Positions 1 through 53,825 are shown, numbered from the stretch's first letter. The stretch: DNA of 56,444 nucleotides from a virus (IMGVR_UViG_3300042319_001750:1-56444), one strand, 5' to 3'. A program made the numbers and translations. Notes: generated by a model not told the origin, from the sequence alone.

Positions 1-13
1 AGAAGGTCACAAA

Positions 14-38
14 ACCCTTTGCTTCGGAAGGCTATGTT
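14..38 (+). promoter_or_regulatory. conserved early motif ACCCTTTGCTTCG, copy 1, followed by TATGTT
   Basis: Same 13-mer occurs at 1300 and 3491, each upstream of a transcription unit. Confidence 0.5.
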
Positions 39-78
39 GTCGGCAATGAAGCTGACACAACCCAAACCAAACACGAAA

Positions 79-609
79 ATGAAAAACACCACGACATCCG
101 CCACATCATCCGCCACATCATCCGCCACATCATCCGCCGCAACCATCGAAGATGGTAACAAGCACCTTACGGCCTTCGCCAAGGCCGCCGAGGTTTACGG
201 CAAAGCCTCCGGCACGTTCAAATCGAAGACCGTCCAGACGGTCCTCGCCCTCCGCGCCGAAGGCTACGATGACAAAGTCATCACCGCCGCGCTCCGTGCC
301 ATCGTTGAGAAGTTCGGCGTTAGCCGTCAACACCTCAACCGTGTGCTCACTGCACCTGCCGCCGAAGGCGGCGCTGGCATGGAGCCAGAGCGCAAACACG
401 AGAAAAGTGGAGCCAAGTCGGTCAAAGCTGAGCTTGGTGCCGCTGCCGCCAAAGGCGGCGTGACGGTCAAGATCGGCGATGCTCACTCGCTGTTCGCCGC
501 CCTGCTCGCCGAATTCGAAGGCAAGCACGCCAAGATCATGGTCTTGGCTGAGAAGCTCAATGAGCTTGCCTCGCAGGGCATGGAGAAGGCAGCTAAAGCT
601 GCCAAGTAA
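79..609 (+). CDS. Lys/Ala-rich putative HTH DNA-binding protein (first early gene)
   Basis: ATG at 79 after an AC-rich leader; HTH-like segment IVEKFGVSRQHLNRVL; has its own terminator. Confidence 0.6.
   Translation: MKNTTTSATSSATSSATSSAATIEDGNKHLTAFAKAAEVYGKASGTFKSKTVQTVLALRAEGYDDKVITAALRAIVEKFGVSRQHLNRVLTAPAAEGGAGMEPERKHEKSGAKSVKAELGAAAAKGGVTVKIGDAHSLFAALLAEFEGKHAKIMVLAEKLNELASQGMEKAAKAAK
95..138 (+). repeat. 12-bp tandem repeat CATCCGCCACAT x3.7 (SATS repeats)
   Basis: Direct reading. Confidence 0.95.
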
Positions 610-631
610 GGCGCAGCGCAACGTCACCCAC

Positions 632-662
632 GGGGCATCTCTTCGGAGATGCCCCTTTTTTT
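632..662 (+). terminator. intrinsic terminator
   Basis: GGGGCATCTC-TTCG-GAGATGCCCC followed by T7. Confidence 0.95.
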
Positions 663-689
663 GTGCCCTGATCTCAAGACAGGGCGAGC

Positions 690-710
690 CTTGGAACCTC
701 AGGTTCTAAG
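690..710. repeat. 21-bp palindrome copy 1
   Basis: CTTGGAACCTCAGGTTCTAAG. Confidence 0.95.
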
Positions 711-763
711 CCTCACACCATGCGGCACATGATGCGCCGCGTCACAATCCCCCAGCCTCAACC

Positions 764-784
764 CTTGGAACCTCAGGTTCTAAG
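764..784. repeat. 21-bp palindrome copy 2
   Basis: CTTGGAACCTCAGGTTCTAAG. Confidence 0.95.
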
Positions 785-825
785 CCCCCTACGAAGTAGA
801 AACCCCGCAACCCACCCACCCACCT

Positions 826-1257
826 ATGACACCCGCCAATCCCCCGCCCACCGTGCATTGCTCCTGCGGAGCTGAAACCATCCTCGACCATTGCCCCTTC
901 TGCGGGTCTCAGTCGCTCTCCCCCAGCCGCTGCCGCCCCATGAATGCCGCTACCGCAGCGGCTTCGACCATCTCCGACCTCGCCCCCCGCGCGTGGGAAC
1001 TGCTCACGAATCGAGGCTATGCCTCCCGCGCTGCTAAGCGCATCATCCAACGCCGCCTTCGGCGTGAGGGCTACCGGTTCTTCATCGCGTTGCCTGACGA
1101 AGGCCCGGCTCGATGGGGCATCCTGTCCCCCGGCGCGGGAATTCCCCGGCCTGAGGACGAGTTCTACTACGTTGGGGTGAGCCTCAACCACTGTGCCCAT
1201 CAGATGGGCAACGACAACGCCACCATCGGCTGGAAAGACTTCTGGAACTGGGACTGA
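826..1257 (+). CDS. hypothetical protein (Cys-rich N-terminus; start could be 940)
   Basis: ORF lies between palindromes 2 and 3; AC-rich leader. Confidence 0.6.
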   Translation: MTPANPPPTVHCSCGAETILDHCPFCGSQSLSPSRCRPMNAATAAASTISDLAPRAWELLTNRGYASRAAKRIIQRRLRREGYRFFIALPDEGPARWGILSPGAGIPRPEDEFYYVGVSLNHCAHQMGNDNATIGWKDFWNWD

Positions 1258-1259
1258 GC

Positions 1260-1280
1260 CTTGGAACCTGAGGTTCTAAG
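1260..1280. repeat. 21-bp palindrome copy 3
   Basis: CTTGGAACCTGAGGTTCTAAG, 2 bp after a stop codon. Confidence 0.95.
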
Positions 1281-1299
1281 CTCCTCCCGCGCTGCGTTG

Positions 1300-1322
1300 A
1301 CCCTTTGCTTCGCAGTAGTATT
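1300..1322 (+). promoter_or_regulatory. conserved early motif copy 2
   Basis: ACCCTTTGCTTCGCAGTAGTATT, identical to 3491-3513. Confidence 0.6.
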
Positions 1323-1368
1323 TCGATGGATGAACCATCACCCCAAACAACCCCACCGACAACACCCC

Positions 1369-1692
1369 ATGCAAACGACCGCCCACTACACCGCCCACTA
1401 CACCGCCGGACCAAAGAACACCCTGACCGTCGTCCGCGACGAACCCCGCCGGACCATCGCCGTTCTCGTCGTCGATGACGAGGTGGAAGCCCGTCAAATC
1501 GCCGCTGAGGTCGGCGCGAAGTTCTCGACCGACCCTCAACCCGCAACCGGACCCTCGCCCGAAGCCGTCGCAGCGTGGCGTCAACTCCGCGATGAGACCC
1601 CTCTCAGGTCATACCCGACCAGAGTCACGGACAACCGCGCGGCATACCGCCGCAAGCAACTGGGTCTCCCGCCCCTGCAGCAGACGCATTGA
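1369..1692 (+). CDS. hypothetical protein
   Basis: ATG after AC-rich leader; internal TAHY duplication. Confidence 0.65.
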   Translation: MQTTAHYTAHYTAGPKNTLTVVRDEPRRTIAVLVVDDEVEARQIAAEVGAKFSTDPQPATGPSPEAVAAWRQLRDETPLRSYPTRVTDNRAAYRRKQLGLPPLQQTH

Positions 1693-1694
1693 CC

Positions 1695-1715
1695 CTTAGA
1701 ACCTCAGGTTCCAAC
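1695..1715. repeat. 21-bp palindrome copy 4
   Basis: CTTAGAACCTCAGGTTCCAAC. Confidence 0.95.
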
Positions 1716-1742
1716 CCAGCAACCCAACAACCCAGCAACAAC

Positions 1743-1946
1743 ATGACCATCGAACGTATCTCCGATCTCACCGGACACCACCACACCCGTGACATCAACG
1801 TCACCGAAGCCCAGATCAAATGCTGGGCCGAGGGCGCACTCATCCAAGACGCCATGCCCCACCTGTCGGATGACGACAGGGAGTTCCTCATGTCAGGCAT
1901 CACCCCCGAGGAGTGGGAAACCCTCGACGAATACCCATTCCCTTAG
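1743..1946 (+). CDS. small conserved phage protein
   Basis: IQDAMPHLS..DREFLMSGITPEEW pattern recalled from small phage proteins; stop lies inside palindrome 5. Confidence 0.75.
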   Translation: MTIERISDLTGHHHTRDINVTEAQIKCWAEGALIQDAMPHLSDDDREFLMSGITPEEWETLDEYPFP

Positions 1947-1962
1947 AACCTCAGGTTCCAAC
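1942..1962. repeat. 21-bp palindrome copy 5
   Basis: CTTAGAACCTCAGGTTCCAAC; supplies the TAG stop. Confidence 0.95.
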
Positions 1963-2008
1963 CCAGCAACCCCGCAACCCAGCAACCCCCTAACACCCAC
2001 CCACATAT

Positions 2009-2230
2009 ATGAGCACCCCACGATACGACCAAGCAGTTCACCTCGCCGCTACCCATCTCCTCTCCGACCTGCCCTACAAGGCAACGGCGGAGGAAATCTT
2101 CGAGGCTCTCGACCGCCCCGAACTCCCGCCCGGATATGAGATGTGCGACGCCGTCAACCTGCCGCAGGAGGAACTCCGCGAGTGGATCGAGAACCTCGCC
2201 CGAGACTTCATGGAATTCGCCCATGAATAA
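2009..2230 (+). CDS. hypothetical acidic protein
   Basis: ORF with AC-rich leader. Confidence 0.7.
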   Translation: MSTPRYDQAVHLAATHLLSDLPYKATAEEIFEALDRPELPPGYEMCDAVNLPQEELREWIENLARDFMEFAHE

Positions 2231-2290
2231 CCCCTTTCCCCGCGTATAGCGGGGCGAAACCCAAACCCAAACCCAAACCCAAACGACAAC

Positions 2291-2809
2291 ATGAAACCAA
2301 AATCCAAATCCAAGTCCATCTCCACGCTCCCCCTCGTCCTCCCTACGCCGCCTTCAGGGGCGGCGGCCATCAAGGCTGTGACCCCACCCATCAAGCAGGC
2401 TGACCTGATCGAAGCTCTCGTAGCTCGGGCTCGCCAGAAGCACCGTGCTGCTGGAGCGGCTGCGGCGGAGGCTGCGGCGGCTGCGGAGGCCATCTTCAAG
2501 GACGCACTGATCGAGCTCTTTCGGCAGGAGCCTGAGAACTTTAGTATCATCTGCAGCGCCATGGTCGGTCAGGGTCGGCTCCAGCTAGACGTGGGGACTC
2601 TTTCCCCTGACCTCAAAAAGCTGCGCAGTGCCTGCCACGTCCCCGGCCCCGGCTACTGGGACGAGAAGCGCGTCCGCGCTGAGATCAAGGAGGGGCTCAA
2701 TGGGCAGGCGTCCCGCGTCGCTGCCATGCTGGGGGACACCCACGTCGTCGGCCTCCTCGACGATACCCTTGACGCCTTGAAAAACGCTGCCAAGAAACTC
2801 TCTGCTTAG
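2291..2809 (+). CDS. hypothetical protein
   Basis: ORF; stop lies inside palindrome 6. Confidence 0.75.
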   Translation: MKPKSKSKSISTLPLVLPTPPSGAAAIKAVTPPIKQADLIEALVARARQKHRAAGAAAAEAAAAAEAIFKDALIELFRQEPENFSIICSAMVGQGRLQLDVGTLSPDLKKLRSACHVPGPGYWDEKRVRAEIKEGLNGQASRVAAMLGDTHVVGLLDDTLDALKNAAKKLSA

Positions 2810-2826
2810 AACCTGAGGTTCTAAGC
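2804..2826. repeat. palindrome copy 6 (perfect 11-1-11)
   Basis: GCTTAGAACCT-G-AGGTTCTAAGC. Confidence 0.95.
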
Positions 2827-2850
2827 CCTGAAACCCAAACGACAACGATA

Positions 2851-3474
2851 ATGAAACCAAATCCATCCATCAAACCACTCAGCCCGTCCCAAGCGACGGA
2901 GCACCCACGTTACTCCGCTGCCATCACCCAAGCGGCGGCCCACTTCCTGTCCACCGTGCCTGAAAAGCTCGATGGGCGGCGGCTCCTCGCCATTCTGTCC
3001 TTCGGGTCGAAGGAGGACATCGCAAAGGCGGGCATCCGCCTCTGGGACAGCGTTCCCGTTGCCCGTGATGCCTCCCGCCGCATTGACGTCCTCGCCCGCC
3101 ACATGCTGGCGGTTGAGGAACACAACAACTCCAAGGATGCTGTCACCGCTTGCGACTGCCCCTTGGAGGCTGCCATCATGAAGTCCGGCATCCCGATGCC
3201 TCCGAAGGAGGTTCTCGACGCCATCCGCGAGATAGCTGCCATCAAAGGCAACAGTAAAGTGGAGATCACCTTTGACGATGTGCTCCTCGACGACTCGCTC
3301 GTGGATGACGACCACGGGCTCCCGATGGGGTGCTTCATTGCGCTCCAGAAAAGCATGCCCGGCACCCGCGTGGTGCAAGGCAAGGTGATCTCCACCCCGA
3401 AGCTCCCCGTGAGCATAGCGCAGGAGATTCTCGACGCTACCCTCGCCGAAGCTAAGAGAATCGGGCTCATGTGA
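2851..3474 (+). CDS. hypothetical protein
   Basis: ORF with CCCAAACGACAAC leader. Confidence 0.75.
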   Translation: MKPNPSIKPLSPSQATEHPRYSAAITQAAAHFLSTVPEKLDGRRLLAILSFGSKEDIAKAGIRLWDSVPVARDASRRIDVLARHMLAVEEHNNSKDAVTACDCPLEAAIMKSGIPMPPKEVLDAIREIAAIKGNSKVEITFDDVLLDDSLVDDDHGLPMGCFIALQKSMPGTRVVQGKVISTPKLPVSIAQEILDATLAEAKRIGLM

Positions 3475-3490
3475 TGCCCTCACACGTTGG

Positions 3491-3513
3491 ACCCTTTGCT
3501 TCGCAGTAGTATT
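3491..3513 (+). promoter_or_regulatory. conserved early motif copy 3
   Basis: Identical 23-mer to 1300-1322. Confidence 0.6.
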
Positions 3514-3626
3514 GGTGGCGGCGGTGAATGACCTGCCGCCGTCACCAACCCACCAATTTCCCTCGTGTTGGGAATAGGGTGGGTCGGGATGTGGATGACC
3601 TGTTATGTCTCCGCGTCCCGACCCTA
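3514..3626 (+). ncRNA. putative structured RNA or 5' leader (three hairpins)
   Basis: Stems at 3514-3546, 3548-3584 and 3581-3624 in a 270-bp intergenic gap. Confidence 0.4.
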
Positions 3627-3668
3627 ACACCCTGATTCCCTCACACCCAAAAGCCTTTCGGCTCGGTG

Positions 3669-3689
3669 CTTAGAACCTGAGGTTCCAAG
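3669..3689. repeat. 21-bp palindrome copy 7
   Basis: CTTAGAACCTGAGGTTCCAAG, exact reverse complement of copies 1 and 2. Confidence 0.95.
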
Positions 3690-3743
3690 CCCTGCCGATA
3701 CCCAAAAACAAAAACAAAAACCCAACACCCAAACGATAACAAC

Positions 3744-5330
3744 ATGGCTACCATCCCACAACTCGACCCGTCCAAAGCAACCCGCGAAGAAATGCGGACT
3801 TGGATTTCCGCCTCCGCCCGCACCATCGCCACTCACCAGAGCGGCTCGCCCACCATCACCTCGCTCCGTGAGGTGATGAAGTCCGTCGGCTTCGCCTCCC
3901 TCTCCGCCGTCATCGCGGAGGGCACCATGGAATCCCTCCGCACCTGCGTCACCAAGATGCACGATGTGGCCAAGGGGCACGGCCTGCTGGACTCGGAGCC
4001 CGCCGCTGCTTCCTGCCCGCCGCTCCCGCCGCTCCCGCCTCCGGCACCGCTTCCTGCCCCGCCGGAGCGCATTACCGTCATCCTCGACGAGGTTGACGGC
4101 CTTGACGAGGCTTCCCGCCTCGCTGACGTGGCTGCCGACTTCGCTCGTCGTGCTGCTGATGCCGCCGCTCGTGCCGCTGCTACTCCCCGCGCTGCAGGTA
4201 TGTCGGCCGCCGATCTCGAACGTCTCGACAAGGTGGAGTCGATGGCTTCCGCAACCCTTGACGCCCTGCGCGGCGAGGCTTCCAAGATCACCGACCTTCA
4301 GGAGAAGTTCGCCCCGCTGGCTGCCGTCCTTGATGCCCTCAAGTCCTCCTCGGGCGGACCACCCACCCTGCCACCCGCTGCCATCGCCTCCATCAAGGCT
4401 GCGACCTCGGGCGACAGGCTCCTGACGGAGGTGCTGCCGTTCTTCACGCCGGGCATCCAGCAGGGCAACCAGATTCCCTGCGTTGCCAGCCCGCCCAGCT
4501 TCGGAAAGACGTTCATGTCGGACGAAATCAGCCGTCTCTACGACGGCAGCTTTTTCCACCCGTTCAAGGACTCCCTCGACGAGGTTGACAGCCTCGTGGG
4601 CACCCTGATGCCCCGCTCGGATGGCACCTTCGCCGTCATCGACGGCCCGCTGGTGAGCGCCGCCCGCCTTGCCAGCACCGGCGTCAACACCCTCTTCGTG
4701 GGAGATGAAATCTTCAACGCCAGTAAGAAGACGCTGGAGTGGATGCAGTCCTTCCTCTCGCCGCGTCTCGTGGAGTTCGTCAACCCTGACGACGGCACCA
4801 CCGGTCTCCGGCGCTGCTTCGTCATTCAGACCAAGCACAGCTTGGAGGACGGCACGTTCGAGGTCATCAAGGCACCAGAGGAGTGCTTGCACTTCCTGTT
4901 CCTCGGCAACCTGCGCACCAATCCCCCAGAGGCATTGATGTCACGTTGCCGCCTCATGCGCTTCGACTACGACCCAGTGTGGGCTACTGAGACGGCGCTC
5001 CAACGCCTTGAGGGCTACTCCGGCGGTTTGTTCTCCGGCAAGGACGCTCAGGATTGGGCGAAGCGTTGGGCTACGGCGATGACGGCTACTCGCGAGGCTT
5101 ACTCCAAGATGGAGGTCAGCCGCCCGCTGTGCTTCCGCTTCCTCATCGGGGCTGTCACCCACGTTGTCCGCCAGCCGGGTGCCTCGCTCAGCATGCTCTC
5201 CGAGTATGTGGCCAAGTGGGCTCCCCATCAGATCGCCGTGCAGAATGCGGCGACCCAAGACACGGACGCTACCTCCTCCGCCCTCGTCAAGAAGATCGTC
5301 GGCTCCTGCTTCCCCGGCTCCGTCAAGTAG
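3744..5330 (+). CDS. MoxR/CobS-like AAA+ ATPase
   Basis: Walker A SPPSFGKT, Walker B LFVGDE, sensor LGN, arginine finger ALMSR; followed by peptidase and vWA genes. Confidence 0.8.
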   Translation: MATIPQLDPSKATREEMRTWISASARTIATHQSGSPTITSLREVMKSVGFASLSAVIAEGTMESLRTCVTKMHDVAKGHGLLDSEPAAASCPPLPPLPPPAPLPAPPERITVILDEVDGLDEASRLADVAADFARRAADAAARAAATPRAAGMSAADLERLDKVESMASATLDALRGEASKITDLQEKFAPLAAVLDALKSSSGGPPTLPPAAIASIKAATSGDRLLTEVLPFFTPGIQQGNQIPCVASPPSFGKTFMSDEISRLYDGSFFHPFKDSLDEVDSLVGTLMPRSDGTFAVIDGPLVSAARLASTGVNTLFVGDEIFNASKKTLEWMQSFLSPRLVEFVNPDDGTTGLRRCFVIQTKHSLEDGTFEVIKAPEECLHFLFLGNLRTNPPEALMSRCRLMRFDYDPVWATETALQRLEGYSGGLFSGKDAQDWAKRWATAMTATREAYSKMEVSRPLCFRFLIGAVTHVVRQPGASLSMLSEYVAKWAPHQIAVQNAATQDTDATSSALVKKIVGSCFPGSVK

Positions 5331-5340
5331 TCCCCTTCGG

Positions 5341-5373
5341 GGAGGGCTTGGAACTTCAGGTTCTAAGCCCTCC
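5341..5373. repeat. palindrome copy 8, extended 13-7-13 form
   Basis: GGAGGGCTTGGAA-CTTCAGG-TTCTAAGCCCTCC. Confidence 0.95.
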
Positions 5374-5403
5374 TCCCCTCAACCCCTTAATCCCTGCAAC
5401 ACT

Positions 5404-6510
5404 ATGACACCGACACCAACACCACCCACACAGATCACCACCCCTGAGTCCGACCGTGCTTTCCGCTTCTCACGGCGGCGTGAAACCCGCAAGCCTGACG
5501 GCACTGTCCGTCAACGTGCTGGCTGCCTCAATCACCTCGCTGTCAAGACGGCCAGTCCCGTTACCTACCTGCTGACCTCCAAGTGCGGCGCACCTACCGC
5601 CTCGTGGCAGTGGAAAGCTGTGGGTGCAGGCTCACGCCACATCATTGAGGTGAACCCCAACTGCGCGACCGTGTTCTTCGCCGAGGCTAAGAACAACTCC
5701 AAGCGGCGCATCGAACTCGTCAAAGCGGTCATCGCTCACGAGTCCTGTCACGGACTCTACACCTCCCGCTCTCCCGACATCCCTCGCGCTTGCCACATCG
5801 TCAAGGTTCCGTTCCGATTGCTCAACCTCTTCGAGGACTGCCGCATCGAACACAAGTATGTGAAGGAGCGCGGGAAGGAGTTCAAGTTCCGCTGGCGTCT
5901 GTTCGACGACAACATGGTCAAGGCTGGCGCAGAAGTCAGCTCCCCGATGACGTGGCTCTACACCATGAAGACTCGTGAGCCTGCCTTGTTCAAGACGCTG
6001 CCCTCCGTCATGGCGGGATTTAAGTGGACAGGCACGGACAGTATGGCGCTACCCTCCGTGGCATACGTCCACCCGCTCAAGCCGATAGAGGGGCGGCTGA
6101 CCTACATCCCTTCCCTCATCAACGTCTTTTACAGAGCGATCATCGACGCCGCCACCACTGAGGATTTGATCCCCCTCGCCCGCTACTGGACGGACATCTT
6201 TGGTAAGGAGTCCGCCTCTGACCTCCCGCCCATCATCGTTGACACGGTGTCGTCAGATATTGGAGGTGTCCCCGAACCTGCTGGAGTTGATTCGGGGGAG
6301 TCGTCCGACGCTGATCGAACGACCCGCGAGGTTGACCACCGAGCTCTCGAAGAACACGGCGGCGGCGACCCCACTGACAAGCGGGCGATGCTGACCCCCG
6401 ACAAGGTGATGCACCACAACACTGACAAGTTCGTGAAGCAGCTTCCACGCGCTGGCTTCATCCCCCTCCTCCGCTACTGCGTTGGATTTGACAGCGACAC
6501 TTCCGTCTAA
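5404..6510 (+). CDS. HExxH metallopeptidase-like protein (CobT N-terminal-like partner of MoxR/vWA)
   Basis: IAHESCHGLY and LLNLFEDCRIE motifs. Confidence 0.75.
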   Translation: MTPTPTPPTQITTPESDRAFRFSRRRETRKPDGTVRQRAGCLNHLAVKTASPVTYLLTSKCGAPTASWQWKAVGAGSRHIIEVNPNCATVFFAEAKNNSKRRIELVKAVIAHESCHGLYTSRSPDIPRACHIVKVPFRLLNLFEDCRIEHKYVKERGKEFKFRWRLFDDNMVKAGAEVSSPMTWLYTMKTREPALFKTLPSVMAGFKWTGTDSMALPSVAYVHPLKPIEGRLTYIPSLINVFYRAIIDAATTEDLIPLARYWTDIFGKESASDLPPIIVDTVSSDIGGVPEPAGVDSGESSDADRTTREVDHRALEEHGGGDPTDKRAMLTPDKVMHHNTDKFVKQLPRAGFIPLLRYCVGFDSDTSV

Positions 6511-6531
6511 CAACCCACCCACTACAACGAT

Positions 6532-7275
6532 ATGCCTAAACTCACTCCAATACTCTCTCCCGCATACTGGAAACCCACTCTCGCCCAGCGCGTCACCAAC
6601 GGATTCGCCTCCGTCATGGAGCAAGCTGAACCTGCCTCCGCTGATCCCGCACCCTCCGGCTCACGCCTCAACCACCGCGCCATCTTCACCCACAACTACG
6701 GCTCCGCATTCCTGCAGCCGTCAGCCGTTGACGGGACTCGCCGCATCCTCCTCATCGTGGACTTTAGCGGCTCCATGTCAGGCATGTGGTGCAGCCAAGG
6801 CGGCTCCGAGTTTGTCTGGGGGCTGATGCAGTTTGCCCGACAAGGCGGATGCCACCTCAAGGTCGTGCTCACTGGGCACGAGAAAGGTCCCGCTGAGCTT
6901 CCCGTTGACACCCCCTTCGAGGTGTTTGCCAGCCTAGCCCCTATGTTCTCGCAGGAAGCATTCGCTGCCACCATGCTCCGCCCACTCGTCGGTGAGATGA
7001 TGGAGGAGTCGGACATCACCATCTGCTGGACGGACGGGCAGTTGACCGATGGCTACGTTGACGCTATCCGCTGGCGTGAGAAGAACATCAACGTCATCGG
7101 TGCCTGCATCGGGAAAGACTCTGATCGAGCCCACCACCCCACCGGAGGCGTCGTCCCTCTGCGGGAAGCGATGCAGGGCTACTTCCACGCTGCCTTCCTC
7201 GACACCGACGCGGCTCGCATCTCGACGCAGATGGCAACATGGATTGCTTCTTGCCCACTGCGTGACCTCCAGTAA
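6532..7275 (+). CDS. von Willebrand factor A domain protein
   Basis: MIDAS motif LIVDFSGSM and WTDG. Confidence 0.8.
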   Translation: MPKLTPILSPAYWKPTLAQRVTNGFASVMEQAEPASADPAPSGSRLNHRAIFTHNYGSAFLQPSAVDGTRRILLIVDFSGSMSGMWCSQGGSEFVWGLMQFARQGGCHLKVVLTGHEKGPAELPVDTPFEVFASLAPMFSQEAFAATMLRPLVGEMMEESDITICWTDGQLTDGYVDAIRWREKNINVIGACIGKDSDRAHHPTGGVVPLREAMQGYFHAAFLDTDAARISTQMATWIASCPLRDLQ

Positions 7276-7284
7276 CAACCCTTC

Positions 7285-7317
7285 GGAGGGCTTAGAACTT
7301 CAGGTTCCAAGCCCTCC
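7285..7317. repeat. palindrome copy 9, extended
   Basis: GGAGGGCTTAGAA-CTTCAGG-TTCCAAGCCCTCC. Confidence 0.95.
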
Positions 7318-7367
7318 ACCCCACCCACCCCGTGAAAGTATTCATCATACCCGCTTCACTCCGCATT

Positions 7368-7652
7368 ATGACCACCAAACAGATACCCCTCGACCGCGCT
7401 AAGGTTACGCTGATCGACAAGCGTAACCCGCTATCCCACATCGTCTGCCTCCTGTGGCAGGACAAGACCCACCACATTGACGACTTCGACCTCAGCCCAT
7501 TGGGTAATGTTGTCGCCGTGCAGGATGATCTGCTCGCCTTCCCGCCTCGCGGATGGGTGACCCTTGATGGTAACTGTCGCCGCCGCACAAGCAGCTACGT
7601 CAAACTCCTCCCCGCCAGACAGCGCCGTAAACGTGCTCTCCCTACCAAATGA
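7368..7652 (+). CDS. hypothetical protein
   Basis: ORF with ATGA overlap to next gene. Confidence 0.55.
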   Translation: MTTKQIPLDRAKVTLIDKRNPLSHIVCLLWQDKTHHIDDFDLSPLGNVVAVQDDLLAFPPRGWVTLDGNCRRRTSSYVKLLPARQRRKRALPTK

Positions 7653-7999
7653 AATCGCCCGAGCAGCTCTACTATTTCGCAGACGAACCCGGCACCAAAT
7701 ACCGGATACTCAAACCCGGTGAACGCACTGGTAAGCACGCCCTCTGCTGGCATAAGTCAGCCATAGTCAAGGGAGGTTTGATCCCAGTAAAGATACCTGC
7801 TTCGCGGGACATGGTCATCCATGAGGATGATGGGAATCACTACTTCACCGTGGCCCATGTTCTCGTCCCACATGAAGCGGTCACCCACTTGCTCGACCTT
7901 TGGTTCGGCAAGTATTCCACCATCTGCGAAGACGGCGAAGAGGCCGCCGCTTGGCAGCAACTCAAGGAAGTCCTCTACCCACCAACAGAACTCGAATAA
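7649..7999 (+). CDS. hypothetical protein
   Basis: ORF in co-oriented string. Confidence 0.65.
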   Translation: MKSPEQLYYFADEPGTKYRILKPGERTGKHALCWHKSAIVKGGLIPVKIPASRDMVIHEDDGNHYFTVAHVLVPHEAVTHLLDLWFGKYSTICEDGEEAAAWQQLKEVLYPPTELE

Positions 8000-8022
8000 T
8001 AACCAACAGCACAAACAAAAAC

Positions 8023-8319
8023 ATGCCAACAATAGACCCTACACTAGCGAGTAAACTCCTCGACCTAATCCCCAAAGCATACTTCGGAAACACCAGCGAC
8101 TATGGCGGTGGCCTGATGGGCTACCACGTTGGCTGGCTCGGCACCATCTGTGTGTATGTCAAGGCTGACAACGTCTTCGACTGGCAAGACATGAGCTTCA
8201 GAGAGCTCACGTCAATGCTTGAAGGGCTCGTCGCCACAAGCGGGTTGCCCGTCAAGGTCAGCCCTGAACCAGAGCTAGTGGGCAAACACTGGCAAGTCTA
8301 CTTCACCATCAACAGCTAA
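8023..8319 (+). CDS. hypothetical protein
   Basis: ATG after A/C-rich leader. Confidence 0.65.
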   Translation: MPTIDPTLASKLLDLIPKAYFGNTSDYGGGLMGYHVGWLGTICVYVKADNVFDWQDMSFRELTSMLEGLVATSGLPVKVSPEPELVGKHWQVYFTINS

Positions 8320-8339
8320 TCACCCCCACCACAACCACA

Positions 8340-8633
8340 ATGAAACGCATCCTCAAAACCACCCCACCCCCGACAGACTTCATCCTTCAAACCCAACTCC
8401 CCGACAATCCCATCATTGGGTTCCAGACCCGTCAAGGTTTGGTGGAGAAAGGCTTCATTCAACAATACATGTATGACCCCAGACAGTGCCTGCTGCGGCT
8501 TGCCCCAATCACGTCGGGTCAACTCTTTCGAGGTTTGCCCGCAGACTTTTGTGTGTGTGTCTTGAACCACCCAGACTTGGACTATTTCCTCTTTGAAACC
8601 GAGAAGGAGCTCCTCCTCTGGCTCGCAGAGTAA
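8340..8633 (+). CDS. hypothetical protein
   Basis: ORF in co-oriented string. Confidence 0.6.
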   Translation: MKRILKTTPPPTDFILQTQLPDNPIIGFQTRQGLVEKGFIQQYMYDPRQCLLRLAPITSGQLFRGLPADFCVCVLNHPDLDYFLFETEKELLLWLAE

Positions 8634-8693
8634 CCAACTCACGGGGGCCGCGCATCCATAACCAACGCGGAACAACAACAGCAATAAACCCAC

Positions 8694-8876
8694 ATGAAAA
8701 AACAGACCGTTGACACCCCCTACAAAGGGTCATGGGCAGATACAATGAAGACGACAGACTGGAAAAAGCTCCAGCCCAAACCAGTCGGAGTCTATGTCAG
8801 GACCATAACGCTAGAAGAATACAGAATGTCTATCGGATTCCCAGCAACCCAGCAACCCAGCAACCCAGCAATATGA
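8694..8876 (+). CDS. hypothetical small protein
   Basis: ORF with ATGA overlap. Confidence 0.5.
   Translation: MKKQTVDTPYKGSWADTMKTTDWKKLQPKPVGVYVRTITLEEYRMSIGFPATQQPSNPAI
8840..8871 (+). repeat. 8-bp tandem repeat CCCAGCAA x4
   Basis: Degenerate versions also at about 1715-1739 and 1962-1987. Confidence 0.9.
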
Positions 8877-9766
8877 AAACCAAACTACACGCCTACCACT
8901 TCAACTGCGGAGTCATCCCACAAAGCCAAGCCTACCTCAAGCTGCGTGATGAACGCATGAAGGTCGAGTCCCGCAGGCACGACCGCATCAACTTCATCCA
9001 CACCGACACAACTCCTAGTGGGTGTAGGTTCAGCCACCTGACCGAGCTCTCTTCTGACGGAGCTATTACCACCTACGAGGTTGACCTCGACCCCAAGCAC
9101 CTGTTCGACGACCAGTGGAACACCAGCGATACCGAGGGGCACACCGGCTACCGAGTCTTCGACTGGGTGGAATACTACTCCCCCCACAACAAGAGTAATA
9201 TCTGGGGCCACTGGCTGGAGGTCACCGATGAAATGGTGGCGGCCCGAGACAATACCAATGCCTGCCGTTATTGCGGGGCTCAGTATGGCACCTGTCACGA
9301 GGGCCACCTGACCGCACCCCGAGACAACCCCAAGTTCTGTAAGAAGTGCCTCGGCTCCCCATACCTCAAGGAGAGCGAGCTCTGGATGTTGCGGCTGACC
9401 CCCGTGAGCCAAAAATATAGCCGCCCGCATGACGAGCTGTCGCAGGAAGACCTCGACTGGTTAAAGCCCCGCTACATCGAAGCCCAGCTTCGCGGTAACG
9501 AGGAGCGCCGTGAGGAGCGGCTGAAGAAGCAGCGTGCTGACTTGGAGAAACAGCAGCAGCTCGATGGCATGAAGTTTGACGGCATGACCCGCCTGCTCGG
9601 TGCAGACATCGAGTTGTCTAACGTCATCTTCCACGACCACGTCCCTGTGTTCAAGTTCGGCTGGCGCAATGGGCTGTCTCCTTCTGTGGCAGAGGCGATG
9701 CAGACAAAGCTGCGTGAGATTGAGTTCCCCCATCCAACCGAGTTCGTAATCAGCGACGCCAAATAA
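8873..9766 (+). CDS. hypothetical protein with CxxC...CxxC zinc-binding motif
   Basis: CRYC and CKKC motifs; coiled-coil segment. Confidence 0.75.
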   Translation: MKTKLHAYHFNCGVIPQSQAYLKLRDERMKVESRRHDRINFIHTDTTPSGCRFSHLTELSSDGAITTYEVDLDPKHLFDDQWNTSDTEGHTGYRVFDWVEYYSPHNKSNIWGHWLEVTDEMVAARDNTNACRYCGAQYGTCHEGHLTAPRDNPKFCKKCLGSPYLKESELWMLRLTPVSQKYSRPHDELSQEDLDWLKPRYIEAQLRGNEERREERLKKQRADLEKQQQLDGMKFDGMTRLLGADIELSNVIFHDHVPVFKFGWRNGLSPSVAEAMQTKLREIEFPHPTEFVISDAK

Positions 9767-9778
9767 CAGCACCCTTCG

Positions 9779-9811
9779 GGAGGGCTTAGAACTTCAGGTT
9801 CCAAGCCCTCC
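9779..9811. repeat. palindrome copy 10, extended
   Basis: GGAGGGCTTAGAA-CTTCAGG-TTCCAAGCCCTCC. Confidence 0.95.
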
Positions 9812-9837
9812 CCCTTTAACCCAACAACAACACTACT

Positions 9838-10449
9838 ATGACGACGCCACGACTGACCGACGCAACCCGAACGAACATGGCTACCACCCTTCGCCAGTGG
9901 GGTATTGAGAACACCCACCGTGAGGTCTTTGATGCTCTCCATGAGGAGGCGGTAGAGGCGGTTGACACTGCCTGCCAAGACTATGCCATCGGGTATGACG
10001 ACCTTGATCCCGACGATCGGGAGTTTCTGATCCTCGCCTACAAGGATGGGTTCTGGGAGCCGACCCATAAGCTGGAGCGTGACGAGCTCAAAGCTCATGT
10101 TGAGGGGCTATCCGCCCGCCTGTCTGACATGATCTTCTCCGCTCCGGCGGCTCCTGACGGGCGCTTCCCTGAGATGTTTGTGCCGCGAGTCCCCACGCTC
10201 AGCACCAGCCACATGACAAGGGAAGATGCTGACAGGCTACACCACCACTACCAACCTTCGGCAATGCTCAGTTCATCTGACGGAGCCCTCCTGCATATCC
10301 ACAACTGTTCCGACCCTGAAGAGGAGTATGCTGAGTTCAGTGAGGCGTTCCGCAACATCATCCTACGGCTGGTCGAAGCTGGTTACAGCTACGTTAGATT
10401 TGACAGTTGCCACGAGCCTATTGCATCCTTCCCCACCTTTGACTGGTGA
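9838..10449 (+). CDS. protein with DUF5983-like C-terminal domain
   Basis: LSTSHMT...GYSYVRFD...FPTFDW pattern, recalled and not searched. Confidence 0.55.
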   Translation: MTTPRLTDATRTNMATTLRQWGIENTHREVFDALHEEAVEAVDTACQDYAIGYDDLDPDDREFLILAYKDGFWEPTHKLERDELKAHVEGLSARLSDMIFSAPAAPDGRFPEMFVPRVPTLSTSHMTREDADRLHHHYQPSAMLSSSDGALLHIHNCSDPEEEYAEFSEAFRNIILRLVEAGYSYVRFDSCHEPIASFPTFDW

Positions 10450-10481
10450 TAGCCAGCCCACACCCCACACCCCACCAAACA

Positions 10482-10706
10482 ATGAACACCGACAACACCA
10501 CCGAGAATACTGAAGTCACCCCCAAGATCGAACGACGCGGCGGGCACCGCTCACTCCCAGATAAGGATAAACTTGCCAAGGTCAGCCACGTTGCCCGCAT
10601 CCTGCGCAGCGGTTACGGCATGGAGATTGCCTGCAAGCGAGCAGGGACAAGCTCCAACACCATCCGCAAATGGGCACGAGAACTCGGCGTCAAATTTGAC
10701 CACTGA
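10482..10706 (+). CDS. small HTH DNA-binding protein
   Basis: GYGMEIACKRAGTSSNTIRKWARE helix-turn-helix pattern. Confidence 0.7.
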   Translation: MNTDNTTENTEVTPKIERRGGHRSLPDKDKLAKVSHVARILRSGYGMEIACKRAGTSSNTIRKWARELGVKFDH

Positions 10707-10841
10707 TGTTATGAGAACCTTACTCCACTTCACTCGATCCCGATGTCGCTACTGGTGGCGCAAGCTCGTCGCCTCCCTTGACTGGTGCCCCTTATGCGGG
10801 GCCACCCTCAACCACACCCGCTCACATAAACTCTGCCCACG

Positions 10842-11375
10842 ATGCAACTTCCGAACAACCCGATAACCCGACTAAACCCTGAAGTCCTTCCTCGCGATTG
10901 GTCAACCTTGACCGGCGCTGACGGACTCGTCTATCAAGCCGATGTCGCTGTCTCCAAGGCGTCAACTCTCCGCGCGAAGGTGCTCCTGTTCAAAGACCTG
11001 CCTCACCTTCACGGCTTTTGGAAGACCGCTCTCGACCGCCCAACTCCTCACCCCGATACCCTAGCCTTGTGCAATCCGCTGACAACGACGGTCTACTTCT
11101 GCAAGGTAAAGGGCAGGCCGCAGCGTCCTCCCGAAGTGCGCGTTGACCCGCGCTACTTCTGTGTCCTCGGCTTCGCTCAAGGACACCTGACCCCCGAATA
11201 CATCGTCCACGAATCCATCCACGCAGGGTTTGCTTACAGCCGCCGAGTGCGCGGCGGCCATCGCTGGCTTGACGATGACGTTGAGGGGGAGGAGCGCATC
11301 TGTTACCCAGCCGGACGTGTCGCCGACGCCATCATTAGACGATTCCACAAGGGAGGTTTTTTCCATGCCAAGTGA
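10842..11375 (+). CDS. HExxH-containing hypothetical protein
   Basis: IVHESIHAG and downstream EER. Confidence 0.6.
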   Translation: MQLPNNPITRLNPEVLPRDWSTLTGADGLVYQADVAVSKASTLRAKVLLFKDLPHLHGFWKTALDRPTPHPDTLALCNPLTTTVYFCKVKGRPQRPPEVRVDPRYFCVLGFAQGHLTPEYIVHESIHAGFAYSRRVRGGHRWLDDDVEGEERICYPAGRVADAIIRRFHKGGFFHAK

Positions 11376-11745
11376 ACCCTACGCTACCGGAGCACGGGTC
11401 TTCCTCGTTGACGGGCCCGTCACTCTCGGCGTCATACTTCCTTCCCCCGAAGGAACCGCCGCACAATATAGGGTTGTGAAGTTGGACGGTGAAGAGGAGC
11501 CTGTAATCCTCCACACAAGACGACTGACCCCCGCAACCCTGACCCCCGGCCGCCGCGTGTTCCGCCACACTGGAGGCCCGCATCGTTTCGGGTTTATTCC
11601 CACGCTCGGCCGCACACCCCCGACATTTTCCAAAGCCCGCATGAACGCGGACGAGGAATCTATTGTGGTCCGGTGGGATAATAACGAACTGGAAGTTGTG
11701 GTTAAAGACCACTTGACTCCAATCATCTACGAGGCTAGCTCGTGA
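11365..11745 (+). CDS. hypothetical protein
   Basis: ORF. Confidence 0.55.
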   Translation: MPSEPYATGARVFLVDGPVTLGVILPSPEGTAAQYRVVKLDGEEEPVILHTRRLTPATLTPGRRVFRHTGGPHRFGFIPTLGRTPPTFSKARMNADEESIVVRWDNNELEVVVKDHLTPIIYEASS

Positions 11746-11755
11746 CCCTCGTCTG

Positions 11756-11974
11756 ATGAAGACTCCCATCCACATCCTCAACCGCATCTACCCGAACGGC
11801 TTTACATGGCACGTCTGGAAACACCAGCGCACCGGAGAGCTCCGCTCCCAGCACCGCCCGAATGGTGGCGAGTCGCTACCCCCCGGCCGCGACTGGGAGA
11901 TTGTCCGCTCCTTGCCCCACAACCCCAAGCTGTGTCAGCGTAGACTAGCTAACAAACTCTTCGACAACCTATAA
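11756..11974 (+). CDS. hypothetical protein
   Basis: ORF. Confidence 0.55.
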   Translation: MKTPIHILNRIYPNGFTWHVWKHQRTGELRSQHRPNGGESLPPGRDWEIVRSLPHNPKLCQRRLANKLFDNL

Positions 11975-11992
11975 CAAACCAAAACGCAGAAA

Positions 11993-12445
11993 ATGAAAAC
12001 CATCAAAGAACTCGCAAACACCGGATCAAAAGCCGCAGCACTACTCAACAAAGGGTGTGGCACACTAGCGGTGACACGGAATCATCCCGGCTGGCACCAC
12101 GACGAAGAGCAACGCCTAGCATTCGCTGCCGCCGTGCGTGATGCGGCGGTGCTTGCGGATTTGGAAATGAAATCAGACTCGTCACCAACACCACGAACAG
12201 ACACCATTCTGGCAAGATTCTCATGGTTTGAAAACAAGTGGATTGACCGTGAGCTACAGTTTGTGCCGAGGCTTGGCGACCGTGTATTGGTGACGGATTC
12301 CTCGCAGAAATGGGAGGGCGATGACTGGATGGTGGAAGGCGAGGTTATGCTCGTTGAATGGTCATTTCGAGGGGGCGTGTTCGGCAGCATGGTTTCGATC
12401 ACACTCAACCCTCGAATCAATCAAACTGGGCCGAATCATTTTTAA
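11993..12445 (+). CDS. hypothetical protein, possibly chimeric
   Basis: Internal M...TPRTD segment resembles the N-terminus of the 13035 gene. Confidence 0.6.
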   Translation: MKTIKELANTGSKAAALLNKGCGTLAVTRNHPGWHHDEEQRLAFAAAVRDAAVLADLEMKSDSSPTPRTDTILARFSWFENKWIDRELQFVPRLGDRVLVTDSSQKWEGDDWMVEGEVMLVEWSFRGGVFGSMVSITLNPRINQTGPNHF

Positions 12446-12455
12446 CCAACCAACT

Positions 12456-12626
12456 ATGACACCAACACCACTCACGAACTACCTCATCAAAGACAACGAC
12501 GTATCCCGCCCGCAGGCACCAATGATCCTCGGAGTCTGTGACCACGACGGTTGCCCACGGCACCGCTGCAAACAAAAACCACCCTTCTACGCAGCAATCC
12601 TCAACAAGAAAAAGAAACGCAAATGA
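12456..12626 (+). CDS. hypothetical small basic protein
   Basis: ATG after AC-rich leader. Confidence 0.45.
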   Translation: MTPTPLTNYLIKDNDVSRPQAPMILGVCDHDGCPRHRCKQKPPFYAAILNKKKKRK

Positions 12627-12687
12627 ACCAAGAACAAAAACGAATCGCCATCATCTACACCCTAACCAATGGGAAACTTGTTACCCC

Positions 12688-13795: not shown

Positions 13796-13797
13796 CT

Positions 13798-14025: not shown

Positions 14026-14121
14026 GAAAATGCACCGCCCCATCCCCATTCTGTGAATGCCAAAAATGTTTTGATGCCAAGCAAGGTGCCGTGGCTGTTG
14101 TCTCCAGTGCCCTTGTTCGGC
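13995..14121 (-). mobile_element. attC-like site A
   Basis: GCCGAAC-ATTCAA-ACTGAGACACAGCCA ... TGGCTG(T)TGTCT(C)CAGT-GCCCTT-GTTCGGC: R boxes, unpaired spacer, two extrahelical bases. Confidence 0.75.
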
Positions 14122-14267: not shown

Positions 14268-14268
14268 A

Positions 14269-15003: not shown

Positions 15004-15017
15004 ACCACATTCCCAAA

Positions 15018-15553: not shown

Positions 15554-15567
15554 ACCACGGCACACCC

Positions 15568-16136: not shown

Positions 16137-16179
16137 AACAGCCCCTGCTGCTTAAACGTGGCAGGGGCTGTTTTGTTTT
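16137..16179 (+). terminator. intrinsic terminator between convergent blocks
   Basis: AACAGCCCCTGC...GCAGGGGCTGTT followed by a T-rich tail. Confidence 0.85.

Positions 16180-19423: not shown

Positions 19424-19427
<4 letters not shown>
18840..19427 (-). CDS. Cys-rich zinc-binding protein
   Basis: CATC, CSSC and CSQCGC motifs; ATGA-coupled to the giant gene. Confidence 0.7.
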
Positions 19428-33037
<13,610 letters not shown>

Positions 33038-52917: not shown

Positions 52918-52942
52918 AGTTGTTGTTTTTTACGACTCTGCC

Positions 52943-52971
52943 ACATTACTGCATGACCAAAACCAAGTCAA
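52943..52971 (-). promoter_or_regulatory. sigma70-like late-operon promoter overlapping the recombinase start
   Basis: TTGACT-17-TAATGT, about 25 nt upstream of the terL ATG. Confidence 0.6.
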
Positions 52972-53825
52972 CCAAACCAAAAACCGCCACCTCGACAGTT
53001 CAGGCATATCTGAAAAGTCATAGATTTGAGGGGCTCTCCATCCACCACATCCGCACGGTGCGCAAGCACATGGGCATTTTCGTGAAATACTTCAAGGAAG
53101 CGCCGCTGGAAGAAGTCACTCCAGAGGAAGTGCTCTGCTCCATGCCCAAAAACTGGGGGCAGACCTCGAAGGCCAACTACATTCGAGCGGTTAAGACTCT
53201 CGCTAATTGGGCGCGGGATAATGACTACCTACCTTACGACCGCCGCACATTTGCCGAGCGTATCAGGAAGCCGAAGGAGGTTCCATTGGAGCCAGAGTTC
53301 TTCACGACTGAAGAAATGCGCCGACTACTGACTGTGGCGGGTATGTTGGTTGGGGGAGAAGAAGAGTTTCTGTTGTCCCTGATTATCCTTGGGGGTTTCG
53401 CTGGACTACGCTCCAGCGAGATCGGACGTTTGCGGTGGGTAGACATCGACCTCCCTCACAAAGCCGTGAGGTTGACGCCGAAGATCACAAAGACATCGTC
53501 TCGTCGTATTGCACTGCTCCCTGACAACGGGGCTGCGTGGCTGGAACACATCAAGGATAAGTCGGGGTTCGTTGTTCCCCAACACCTTATCCCAAATTTG
53601 AACCGCTACATCGGCACACTCGCCAAAGAAGCTGGTGTGGAGTGGAAGAACAATGCCCTCCGCCATTCATACGTCACCTATGCCATGGCACAGGAGCGCG
53701 ATGCGTGGAAAGTAGCCGAGCAAGTGGGCAACTCACCCCGTGTTTTGCAAGCCCATTACAAAGGGCTTGTGCTCCTCCCAGACGCAGTTGAGTGGTTTGG
53801 TATCACCCCTGACAACACCCTATGA
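52953..53825 (+). CDS. tyrosine recombinase (core-binding plus catalytic domains)
   Basis: GLRSSE (R), TKT (K), NALRHS, VGNSP, AHY (Y). Confidence 0.9.
   Translation: MTKTKSTKPKTATSTVQAYLKSHRFEGLSIHHIRTVRKHMGIFVKYFKEAPLEEVTPEEVLCSMPKNWGQTSKANYIRAVKTLANWARDNDYLPYDRRTFAERIRKPKEVPLEPEFFTTEEMRRLLTVAGMLVGGEEEFLLSLIILGGFAGLRSSEIGRLRWVDIDLPHKAVRLTPKITKTSSRRIALLPDNGAAWLEHIKDKSGFVVPQHLIPNLNRYIGTLAKEAGVEWKNNALRHSYVTYAMAQERDAWKVAEQVGNSPRVLQAHYKGLVLLPDAVEWFGITPDNTL

Follow-up and report, generated by a model that had tools for sequence, protein, structure and literature searches.

A palindromic repeat between small genes of uncultured lake phages as a candidate transcribed punctuation mark

Background

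Palindromic repeats between neighbouring genes are known from several phages and bacteria, and the element considered here is a 21-bp palindrome found in ten copies at gene junctions of a viral DNA stretch, IMGVR_UViG_3300042319_001750:1-56444. This stretch, referred to below as the window, makes up an entire IMG/VR viral record of 56444 bases, which is rated 85% complete, and the runs that contain its DNA are lake and freshwater metagenomes. In phage T7, RNase III sites are hairpins between co-transcribed genes, just past stop codons, as are the repetitive extragenic palindromes (REPs) of bacteria; both define or protect upstream 3' ends. The T7 sites are longer irregular helices without identical sequence, and RNase III needs a helix of about 20 pairs. 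REPs, whose sequence is lineage-specific, are imperfect palindromes of 20-40 nt; a dedicated transposase-like protein disperses them, and they are not restricted to one operon. The attC sites of integrons act as a folded single strand of ~57-141 nt with R and L boxes and extrahelical bases, and conserved outer arms around a variable centre are the layout of tyrosine-recombinase sites. In core sites of this type (lox, FRT, dif, attB), the inverted arms enclose a crossover region of constant length, 6-8 bp, whose asymmetry sets the polarity, and sites in an array all point the same way.

Four further phage systems are relevant. Promoter-early stem-loop (PeSL) cassettes of T4-type phages are short conserved regulatory repeats that contain a stem-loop and separate small early genes; the region is plastic, and indels and replacements between relatives break at the repeats (PMC2839356, PMC4122927). 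The 17-bp repeats of Cluster O mycobacteriophages (TGTTCGGNNNCCGAACA) have perfect 7-bp arms and a 3-bp variable centre and are present in tens of copies, many of them intergenic; the orientation of their centre is meaningless and their function is reported as unexplained (PMC4351075). Cluster A mycobacteriophages have many repressor sites, termed stoperators, in short intergenic gaps near stop codons, where they halt elongating polymerase (PMC9283540). The early promoters of N4 are DNA hairpins for the virion RNA polymerase, with a short stem, a 3-nt loop and both conserved and covarying positions, clustered at the presumed entering end of the genome (PMC4496689).

The palindrome of the window is filed here with phage intergenic regulatory repeats, as a new variant; it shows the exchange of PeSLs without a promoter, the geometry of N4 hairpins without a polymerase and the look of Cluster O repeats without their distribution. 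Like PeSLs, it is a stem-loop repeat between small, presumably early genes, and population breakpoints (two of four listed joints and one loose end, described below) fall at its sites. However, the PeSL includes a strong sigma-70-like promoter and a terminator, whereas no promoter-like element is present here and the unit is just 21-35 bp, with a sequence that switches wholesale between lineages. The Cluster O repeats are described as genome-wide, with one third in coding regions and few in rearrangements, whereas the present sites occupy one block, are strictly junctional, are often extended by additional pairing flanks (clamps) and are used as breakpoints. Stoperators are asymmetric, 13-17 bp long, bound by a monomer, oriented with transcription and spread genome-wide in temperate phages, whereas the present sites are palindromic and neither a repressor nor lysogeny has been shown. 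The geometry of N4 hairpins, namely 5-7 pairs, a 3-nt loop and conserved plus covarying bases, is matched here, although N4 is reported to have three asymmetric hairpins with defined bases at -11, -10, -8 and +1 and a known enzyme, whereas the present sites number 10-12 and are symmetric, and the search for a polymerase gave none. The position past stop codons between co-oriented genes is shared with T7 RNase III sites and REPs, and one RNA-library contig may represent transcription across a site. Unlike attC, the elements are 21-37 nt long with a single helix of 9-17 pairs, and by eye there is no R-box consensus beyond AAC/GTT. Searches of the literature for such repeats brought up nothing on this phage group, which is not proof of absence.

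The repeat array and its relatives

Exact matches to CTTRGAACYTSAGGTTCYAAS occur at ten places in the window, beginning at 690, 764, 1260, 1695, 1942, 2805, 3669, 5347, 7291 and 9785; these ten places account for 15 strand matches, against 0.00 expected from 100 shuffles. The same ten copies had been noticed in a first-pass annotation made from the sequence alone, in which none was noticed beyond 9.8 kb, and scans of all 56444 bases with 3 mismatches, or with the 13-nt core and 1 mismatch, added no further place. Its start of the array at 690 has to be given up: the relative G003 has two more copies just ahead of that point, so the window cuts the array. The ten sites bound nine units of 1-5 open reading frames (ORFs) each, and all are intergenic for the set of ORFs judged coding. 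Both orientations are present, copy 7 being the reverse complement of copies 1 and 2, and the central base runs C,C,G,C,C,G,G,C,C,C from copy 1 to copy 10. At positions 4/18, four copies have G/T, five have A/C and one has A/T, in line with the arm mismatches (G.U in four, A.C in five) that had been counted earlier.

Site 1 (690..710; CTTGGAACCTCAGGTTCTAAG) is the first past an intrinsic terminator, and site 2 (764..784), 74 nt away, has the same sequence. Site 3 (1260..1280) starts 2 nt past the TGA at 1255-1257, and site 4 (1695..1715), a bare site with A/C at positions 4/18, likewise starts 2 nt past a stop codon. Two copies were correctly said to supply the upstream TAG: site 5 (1942..1962) contains that of the ORF ending at 1946, and site 6 (2805..2825), the sole A/T copy, contains that of ORF 2291-2809. 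Site 7 (3669..3689) is followed 54 nt downstream by an AAA-ATPase gene. The longer arms that had been described for copies 8-10 are also present, as GGGAGGG/CCCTCC-type flanks. Site 8 (5339..5375, core 5347-5367) has a GGGGAGGG/CCCTCCTC clamp that gives a 17-pair helix, and a small hairpin, CCCCTTCGGGG (5332-5342), lies ahead of it. Site 9 (7285..7317, core 7291-7311) has the clamp GGAGGG/CCCTCC; its orthologue in the relative G001 differs from it in both the inner stem (AA/TT) and the clamp (CGGCGG/CCGCC). Site 10 (9778..9812, core 9785-9805), the final copy of the array, has the clamp GGGAGGG/CCCTCCC.

A scan of viral contigs for the motif returned 14 stretches on 11 contigs, four of which are multi-copy, and the motif was found in five syntenic relatives, always in the same gene block. 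Two of these, G003 and G004, have ~84-99% nucleotide identity to the window in aligned pieces; the others, G001 (69 kb), G002 (a 15 kb fragment) and G005 (61.5 kb), have ~66-83%. At up to 5 mismatches there are 8 sites in G003, 5 in G004, 11 in G001, 9 in G002 and 7 in G005, confined to one ~10 kb block of co-oriented small genes and with none elsewhere in those records. A twelfth G001 site has a 2-nt centre, and in G005 the arms are kept and the centre is ATT or AAT in six of the seven sites.

More distant relatives, reached by searching with the conserved AAA-ATPase gene inside the array, have other palindromes in the same kind of gene junction. The contig L176 (ATPase identity 68%) has ten copies of TTGGAAAC-AT-GTTTCCAA, L177 (54%) has five of CTTACAAT-N6-7-ATTGTAAG, and L178 (79%) has a single CTTAGAAAC-A-GTTTCTAAG. 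In G006, at 42% ATPase identity, the motif GTTGCA-N3-6-TGCAAC-AC has 11 forward and 4 reverse matches, two of the latter at the same places as forward ones. Judging from the sequences compared, the element is constant in architecture and placement, while its sequence is swapped wholesale between lineages.

Some features of the relatives' junctions may be recorded separately. Two composite junctions in G006 (L172 13675-13800 and 14190-14320) consist of the motif, a strong hairpin with a short T-run, a conserved 40-nt element (TTCTGGTCATCGG...GTCAGAA) and a leader, a build more PeSL-like than that of the window. A non-coding stretch of ~300 nt ahead of the first sites, outside the window, is conserved between G001 (L023 3738-4060) and G003 (L036 3790-4100) and contains several hairpins (e.g. 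around ATTTTGGCCAAAAT), with no Rfam match in G001. Two related contigs end, right ahead of the first sites, in tandem units of 23-31 bp that share GCGTCTAG (G005 ends, L030 1-168 and L033 1380-1519; L176 1-150). A 31-bp 'terminal repeat' of G005 sits within this tandem array; the arrays may be real genome ends, iterons or an assembly break. Among the matches listed, contigs of gut 'Oscillospiraceae' metagenome-assembled genomes (58-62% G+C) have dozens of identical 9-bp arms, CTTAGAACC-NNN-GGTTCTAAG, located in the long inverted ends of 360-820 bp non-coding elements (L040-L117, e.g. L049 1327-2005). The 21-mer used by G005 occurs among these copies, and the repeats have no Rfam match. The identity of the arms is probably a coincidence, and no host is inferred from it; the other arm matches in the genome contigs listed are single ones, near the ~35 that we estimate to be expected by chance.

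Hairpin structure and covariation

In an alignment of 37 sites, the outer arms TT.GAA and TTC.AA are invariant, and the inner two pairs and the centre are variable yet complementary, as where CC/GG is replaced by AA/TT at two G001 sites. The spacing of the outer arms is usually 7 bp, with 6 bp at the G001 site at 24875 and in L176 and 5 bp in L178. A usual site has 9 pairs and a 3-nt loop, with covarying inner pairs; L178, L176, L177 and G006 have other stems with loops of 2-7 nt, those of G006 having 5-7 pairs and loops of 3-6 nt. Paired cells in the alignment amount to 70.4%, against 66.0 +/- 1.0 in shuffled alignments (0/500 reach it), the covariation score is 0.141 against 0.099 (1/500), and pairing falls to 45-50% after a slide of one column; as the aligned sites are related sequences, these shuffle counts are not probabilities.

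Flank clamps of at least 5 contiguous pairs are present at 16 of the 59 sites in nine records, against 2.2 expected when flanks are exchanged between sites, a number reached in 0/5000 permutations. Orthologous sites are non-independent in this count; the distinct clamp sequences are independent, and there are at least nine of them, including GGGAGGG/CCCTCC, CGGCGG/CCGCC, GCGACC/GGTCGC, GAGTC/GACTC, GGTAGC/GCTACC and CCCG/CGGG. Clamped sites, which have 15-17 pairs and predicted energies of -23 to -30 kcal/mol, follow the larger conserved genes (those of the ATPase, the vWA-like protein and the phrog_26133 protein), while bare sites, with 5-9 pairs and -4.4 to -10 kcal/mol, follow small ones. 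Small neighbouring hairpins, which overlap the left arm of the first sites, covary as well (CTCC/GGAG, TTCC/GGAA, TCTC/GAGA, TCCC/GGGA), and hairpins with a CTTCGG loop on the sense strand lie ahead of several clamped sites. From the clamp excess and the complementary inner changes, we conclude that selection acts on the hairpin form, at least at clamped sites. The earlier argument that A.C mismatches favour a duplex-DNA site over an RNA stem is a fair one that still counts, but it underplayed this selection, which is visible in the covarying flank stems and the lineage-specific inner stems.

Gene junctions and transcription signals

The genes of the window fall into a rightward block, from 52920 to the end and continuing from 1 to ~16150, and a leftward block (16178-52917) that includes the terminase, a 4537-aa protein and other large virion-type genes. 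Some 8-10 kb is missing between the end of the window and its start. Relatives have there a large non-coding region and genes for a family A DNA polymerase, an APS kinase and a dATP/dGTP diphosphohydrolase-like protein. The site-bearing block is presumed to be early, from its position and its small genes. The distances given here come from automatic ORF calls, some of them miscalls. Across six genomes, the upstream stop codon is at most 25 nt from the site in 32 of 41 measurable cases (at most 3 nt in 12; median 16), and the next ATG is about 20-60 nt ahead, with a median of 38 nt.

Between positions -45 and +60 of the sites there is no conserved element at a fixed distance, -10/-35-like elements included, except for a C at position 22, which is found in 32 of 37 sites and constitutes a directional feature. 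The centre is a pyrimidine on the sense strand, and hence a purine on the template loop, in 27 of 37. Sigma-70-like sites occur at chance level (5, against 5.6 expected), and the stems of the window lack a T-run behind them. Only two strong terminator hairpins are present on the + strand of 1-17000, at 632-655 and 16137-16172. The first belongs to a canonical intrinsic terminator (632..662, + strand) behind the first ORF, which ends at 609, and in G000, G001, G002 and G003 a site lies 6-35 nt past its T-run; the second (16137..16172), a terminator-like hairpin, closes the rightward block.

Each site is separated from the next start codon by a C/A-rich leader without a Shine-Dalgarno sequence (e.g. 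1716..1742, + strand), and sequence of this kind precedes the start codons of late genes too. Such leaders may be a translation-loading platform of a host that does not use Shine-Dalgarno sequences. Leaders between sites and starts can contain tandem C/A-rich units of 7-12 nt (CCCAGCAA, CCCCGCAA, CCCGACAA, AACCCAA), seen at 1716-1742, 1963-2008 and 2231-2290 of the window and at L030 816-849, 3771-3789 and 8690-8720. The over-represented word AACCYTGAC was considered as a second element and rejected, as it falls in coding sequence.

Breakpoints in natural populations

For 1-12000, contigs from an RNA library and from three lake DNA runs were aligned; neither strand nor ends can be read from the RNA contigs. 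Two of the four joints listed touch sites. The joint 713->788, found in two runs, deletes one of the twin sites 1 and 2, and the joint 1717->2000, found in one run, deletes the unit between sites 4 and 5; the joints 8404->8578 and 8674->8870 lie outside sites. In addition, at one listed loose end the sequence passes directly from the flank of the array's first site to 2809, within site 6. In each site-linked event the two sites are identical, central base included, and none of the four listed joints changes strand. Borders of similarity with G001 and G003 are often at sites, and the gene order of the five syntenic relatives is collinear, with no inversion among them. The sites are where presumably early, probably anti-defence, gene units get lost and swapped in natural populations. 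Because each event joins identical sites, the breakpoints fit general recombination as well as site-specific exchange.

Candidate binding proteins

Several proteins could be readers of the sites. The ORF at 19..609 (+ strand), which adjoins the array, has a helix-turn-helix (HTH)-like stretch, GVSRQHLNRVL, and no family match, and is a candidate DNA-binding protein. It is kept with a Q.LNR stretch in G001, G002 and G005 (43-68% identity) and is itself preceded by sites in G001, G002 and G003; in G005 its equivalent, with the terminator, is at the opposite contig end, separated from the sites by the tandem repeats of 25-31 bp. A structure model of this protein had a pLDDT (predicted local distance difference test) of 50.9, too poor for use. 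A second HTH candidate is the 86-aa ORF 10446-10706. Among relatives with other motifs, G006 has no detectable homologue of either ORF and L176 has none of the 86-aa ORF; the L176 contig starts too late to show a homologue of the ORF ending at 609.

A Xer-like tyrosine recombinase (52920..53825, + strand), with two domains that are far below family cut-offs, is kept in G001, G003, G004, G005 and G006, at 45-86% identity across the lineages tested (45% in G006), and is the only recognisable DNA-binding enzyme kept in every one of them. The giant protein of 4537 aa (19424..33037, - strand) is of the large polyvalent (ejection) kind and gave no RNA polymerase signal. Searches against Pfam, PHROG and PDB gave no match for it, polymerase motifs sought by pattern were not convincingly present, and PF00940 was absent in 5/5 records, a weak test in which control genomes gave no match either. 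Its similarity to an N4-like virion RNA polymerase is confined to an HExxH domain (aa 2913-3149, E 5e-10), which lies behind the polymerase part of the N4-like protein and is also found in T7-like internal core proteins. Homologues of the giant protein are metagenomic proteins, 7/19 with ART-PolyVal, and Atlas leads point to polyvalent-protein domains. It thus looks like a polyvalent ejection protein, in which a polymerase domain of very divergent form is conceivable.

Discussion

It may be that the palindromes are transcribed stem-loops that punctuate a long early transcript, by processing or as a barrier at 3' ends; this is the reading we prefer, tentatively and at somewhat less than an even chance. 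In the long RNA transcribed from the rightward early block, each unit's stop codon would be followed at once by the conserved hairpin, which a G+C clamp would extend after larger genes. The hairpin could then act as a 3'-end barrier against nucleases, as a cleavage point that splits cistrons, or as both, and the unstructured C/A-rich leader of the next gene would be left free for ribosomes in a host without Shine-Dalgarno use. The base of the stem (CTTRGAA / TTCYAAG and the C at position 22) would be the target of a sequence-specific factor, presumably one that co-evolves with it, as the wholesale change of the motif between lineages suggests. As repeats of 21-30 bp, the sites also serve as crossover points for deleting and swapping early gene units. 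A transcript role is the best single reading because the sites are tightly coupled to stop codons and lack promoter elements, because the long block is free of terminators, and because the neighbouring hairpins are of RNA type; a folded single strand is favoured by an inner part that varies in length and changes symmetrically, and by the clamps and the covarying neighbouring hairpins.

Several observations weigh against a transcribed stem-loop. The invariant outer TT.GAA / TTC.AA reads more like protein contact than stem stability, and with the independent variation of the half-sites it favours contact by a protein, possibly on duplex DNA. On the sense strand of the 37 sites, pair 4/18 is A.C in 13, G.U in 12 and A-U in 12, and never G-C, with the weak half on either side equally often; bare A.C sites reach just -4.4 kcal/mol as sense RNA. 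There is no advantage of the sense strand, and the complementary strand folds better at 27/40 and 21/26 sites. This is probably due to a C/A-rich sense strand, as the flanks are C/A-rich on that strand and the core is unbiased (G.T 12, A.C 13). Better folding of the complementary strand was considered as evidence for template-strand hairpins and rejected, since it arises in the flanks. Further, a strong intrinsic terminator immediately precedes the first sites of the window, a position at which one would expect a promoter, and the helices, with 15-17 pairs when clamped and 5-9 when bare, are shorter than those of RNase III sites. An RNA-library contig (3626-3780) covers site 7 and weakly suggests read-through; it may be contaminating DNA, and such contigs lack RNA ends. 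No processing enzyme or RNA-binding protein was identified.

A duplex-DNA operator is an unlikely but live alternative and the main rival, and had already been proposed for the two HTH proteins. A dimeric phage protein, perhaps the product of the ORF ending at 609 or of ORF 10446-10706, would bind the half-sites TTRGAA and either shut off early units or block elongating RNA polymerase at each junction, in the manner of Cluster A stoperators. Dyad symmetry, the invariant TT.GAA / TTC.AA and the freely varying centre are all consistent with this, as is the behaviour of position 4, where the half-sites vary independently (25/37 hybrid, never G in both, no side preference); hybrids are expected if one weak half-site is tolerated. 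The conserved HTH-like ORF adjoins the array and is preceded by sites in three relatives, the relatives with other motifs lack detectable homologues as described, and the Cluster O repeats were likewise predicted to bind dimeric proteins (PMC4351075). However, a fixed dimer spacing is not kept: the outer arms are 5, 6 or 7 bp apart among sites and lineages, and spacing varies even inside genomes (1/12 sites in G001, 1/5 in L177 and ~4/10 in G006). Flank clamps and the symmetric change of CC/GG to AA/TT have no role in a duplex site, there is no promoter element at a fixed distance, and two features are directional, namely the preference for pyrimidines in the centre and the C at position 22. 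A-type sites are symmetric, without the asymmetry and orientation of stoperators, and the poor structure model of the candidate protein adds nothing in its favour. The adjoining, conserved ORF keeps the operator proposal alive, and the clamps and the variable inner length are what it leaves unexplained. An improbable variant of a DNA-level role is that of hairpin promoters, in which negative supercoiling would extrude the palindrome and a phage RNA polymerase entering with the DNA would start an early transcript at each site, as in N4. The short stem with conserved and variable positions, the 3-nt loop and the clustering in the presumed first-entering tenth of the genome match the N4 architecture (PMC4496689). 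Where N4 has a template-strand purine at -11, G at -8 and C at +1, the sites have a template-strand loop centre that is a purine in 27/37 and a sense-strand C22 in 32/37. In four genomes a site follows a terminator, the opposite-strand order terminase-portal-capsid-giant protein recalls N4, and the giant protein has one domain in common with the N4-like enzyme. Against this, that domain is outside the polymerase part, homologues of the giant protein carry ART-PolyVal, and no RNA polymerase was found with PF00940, Pfam, PHROG, PDB or motif patterns, all of them sequence-level tests and the first of them weak. The sites are also symmetric, the would-be start bases are pyrimidines, and at two G006 junctions the motif precedes a terminator-like hairpin.

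Recombination and DNA entry offer two further explanations. The palindromes may be core sites of the Xer-like recombinase, with 7-bp arms around a crossover region of 5-7 bp, and the early region an exchangeable cassette array; this had been proposed in the first-pass annotation and is decidedly improbable. The enzyme is kept in every lineage tested, the joints and the loose end at sites always involve the same central base, and the similarity borders of relatives are often at sites. The arms CTTRGAA/TTCYAAG are present, and the centre is mostly 7 bp (6 at G001 24875 and in L176, 5 in L178). However, the sites do not share an orientation: the central base gives them mixed polarity, and there are centres with full symmetry (CCTAGG, ACATGT). 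Inversions would then be possible, and none was seen in the five collinear relatives or among the four listed joints. Units keep their order between genomes, the length of the centre differs within one genome, the bare arms are only 7 bp, and the clamps are not explained. Identical repeats of 21-30 bp also suffice for general recombination, as shown for PeSLs (PMC2839356). What stands of the proposal is the kept gene and the deletion breakpoints in sites. In its strongest form, which is very improbable, the recombinase targets would make up an integron-like phage array, in which units of 1-5 genes are excised, lost and captured between co-infecting phages, with lineage-specific arms as a compatibility code; if true, a lytic-looking phage would possess a system dedicated to exchanging genes, and the exchange would not be a by-product of repeats. 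Most improbable of all is a signal on entering DNA, at which stepwise genome entry pauses or an ejected protein binds for entry or protection. The sites do lie within ~10 kb beside a large non-coding and tandem-repeat region where two related contigs end, and a giant ejection-type protein is encoded. Their strict placement at gene junctions, ahead of leaders, points instead to gene expression, and the 'terminal repeat' of G005 does not establish the genome ends, being internal to a tandem array. Entry signals and anything else altogether are, taken together, quite unlikely.

Whichever reading applies, the element is a compact, portable 'punctuation mark' of uncultured lake phages, whose sequence switches wholesale while its architecture is constant. 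If the palindromes are transcribed stem-loops, as we prefer, they would imply that early expression, in a host without Shine-Dalgarno use, is organised by a factor specific for hairpins, and would represent a natural insulator part of 21-35 nt. If they are read as DNA, they would represent a new operator or promoter code. Loss and swapping at sites makes the turnover of early, probably anti-defence, genes traceable in metagenomes.

Other features of the locus

Megablast of 1-12000 against cultured phages gave no match, and tblastn with the terminase gave only remote Streptomyces phage matches; neither search yielded a cultured relative or host. Upstream of several non-early genes (34986-35918, 37309-41574 and 17789-18280), TTGACG is followed at ~17 nt by a weak -10-like hexamer, whose end is 5-8 nt from the ATG, a layout that suggests leaderless or near-leaderless messages.

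In the part missing from the window (L035 16291-16695 and L036 3218-3796 in G003), G003 has a dATP/dGTP diphosphohydrolase N-terminal domain (E 4.9e-27) adjoining the family A DNA polymerase. Such a domain also occurs in the MazZ enzymes of 2-aminoadenine genomes. The APS kinase gene of G003 (E 8e-46) is in the same missing part.

A conserved trio of genes lies within the array. It consists of an ATPase (3744-5330, with a weak AAA_5 match), a protein without assignment (5403-6510) and a protein with a DxSGS motif (6532-7275) that by eye resembles a vWA/MIDAS domain, and the trio recalls MoxR-vWA pairs.

Rfam matches were limited to one tRNA, in the window and in G001. In the window, the tRNA gene (15018-15090; 74 bits) is followed by an ORF (15110-15553) that matches the Acb2/Tad1 hairpin domain (E 5.7e-8); proteins of this family are sponges for nucleotides that signal in defence. 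The tRNA at the corresponding place in G001 is a tRNA-Met. In G005 this place (L030 11369-11446) has an ARAGORN tRNA with the anticodon TTA, which would read the TAA stop codon and is a possible suppressor tRNA.

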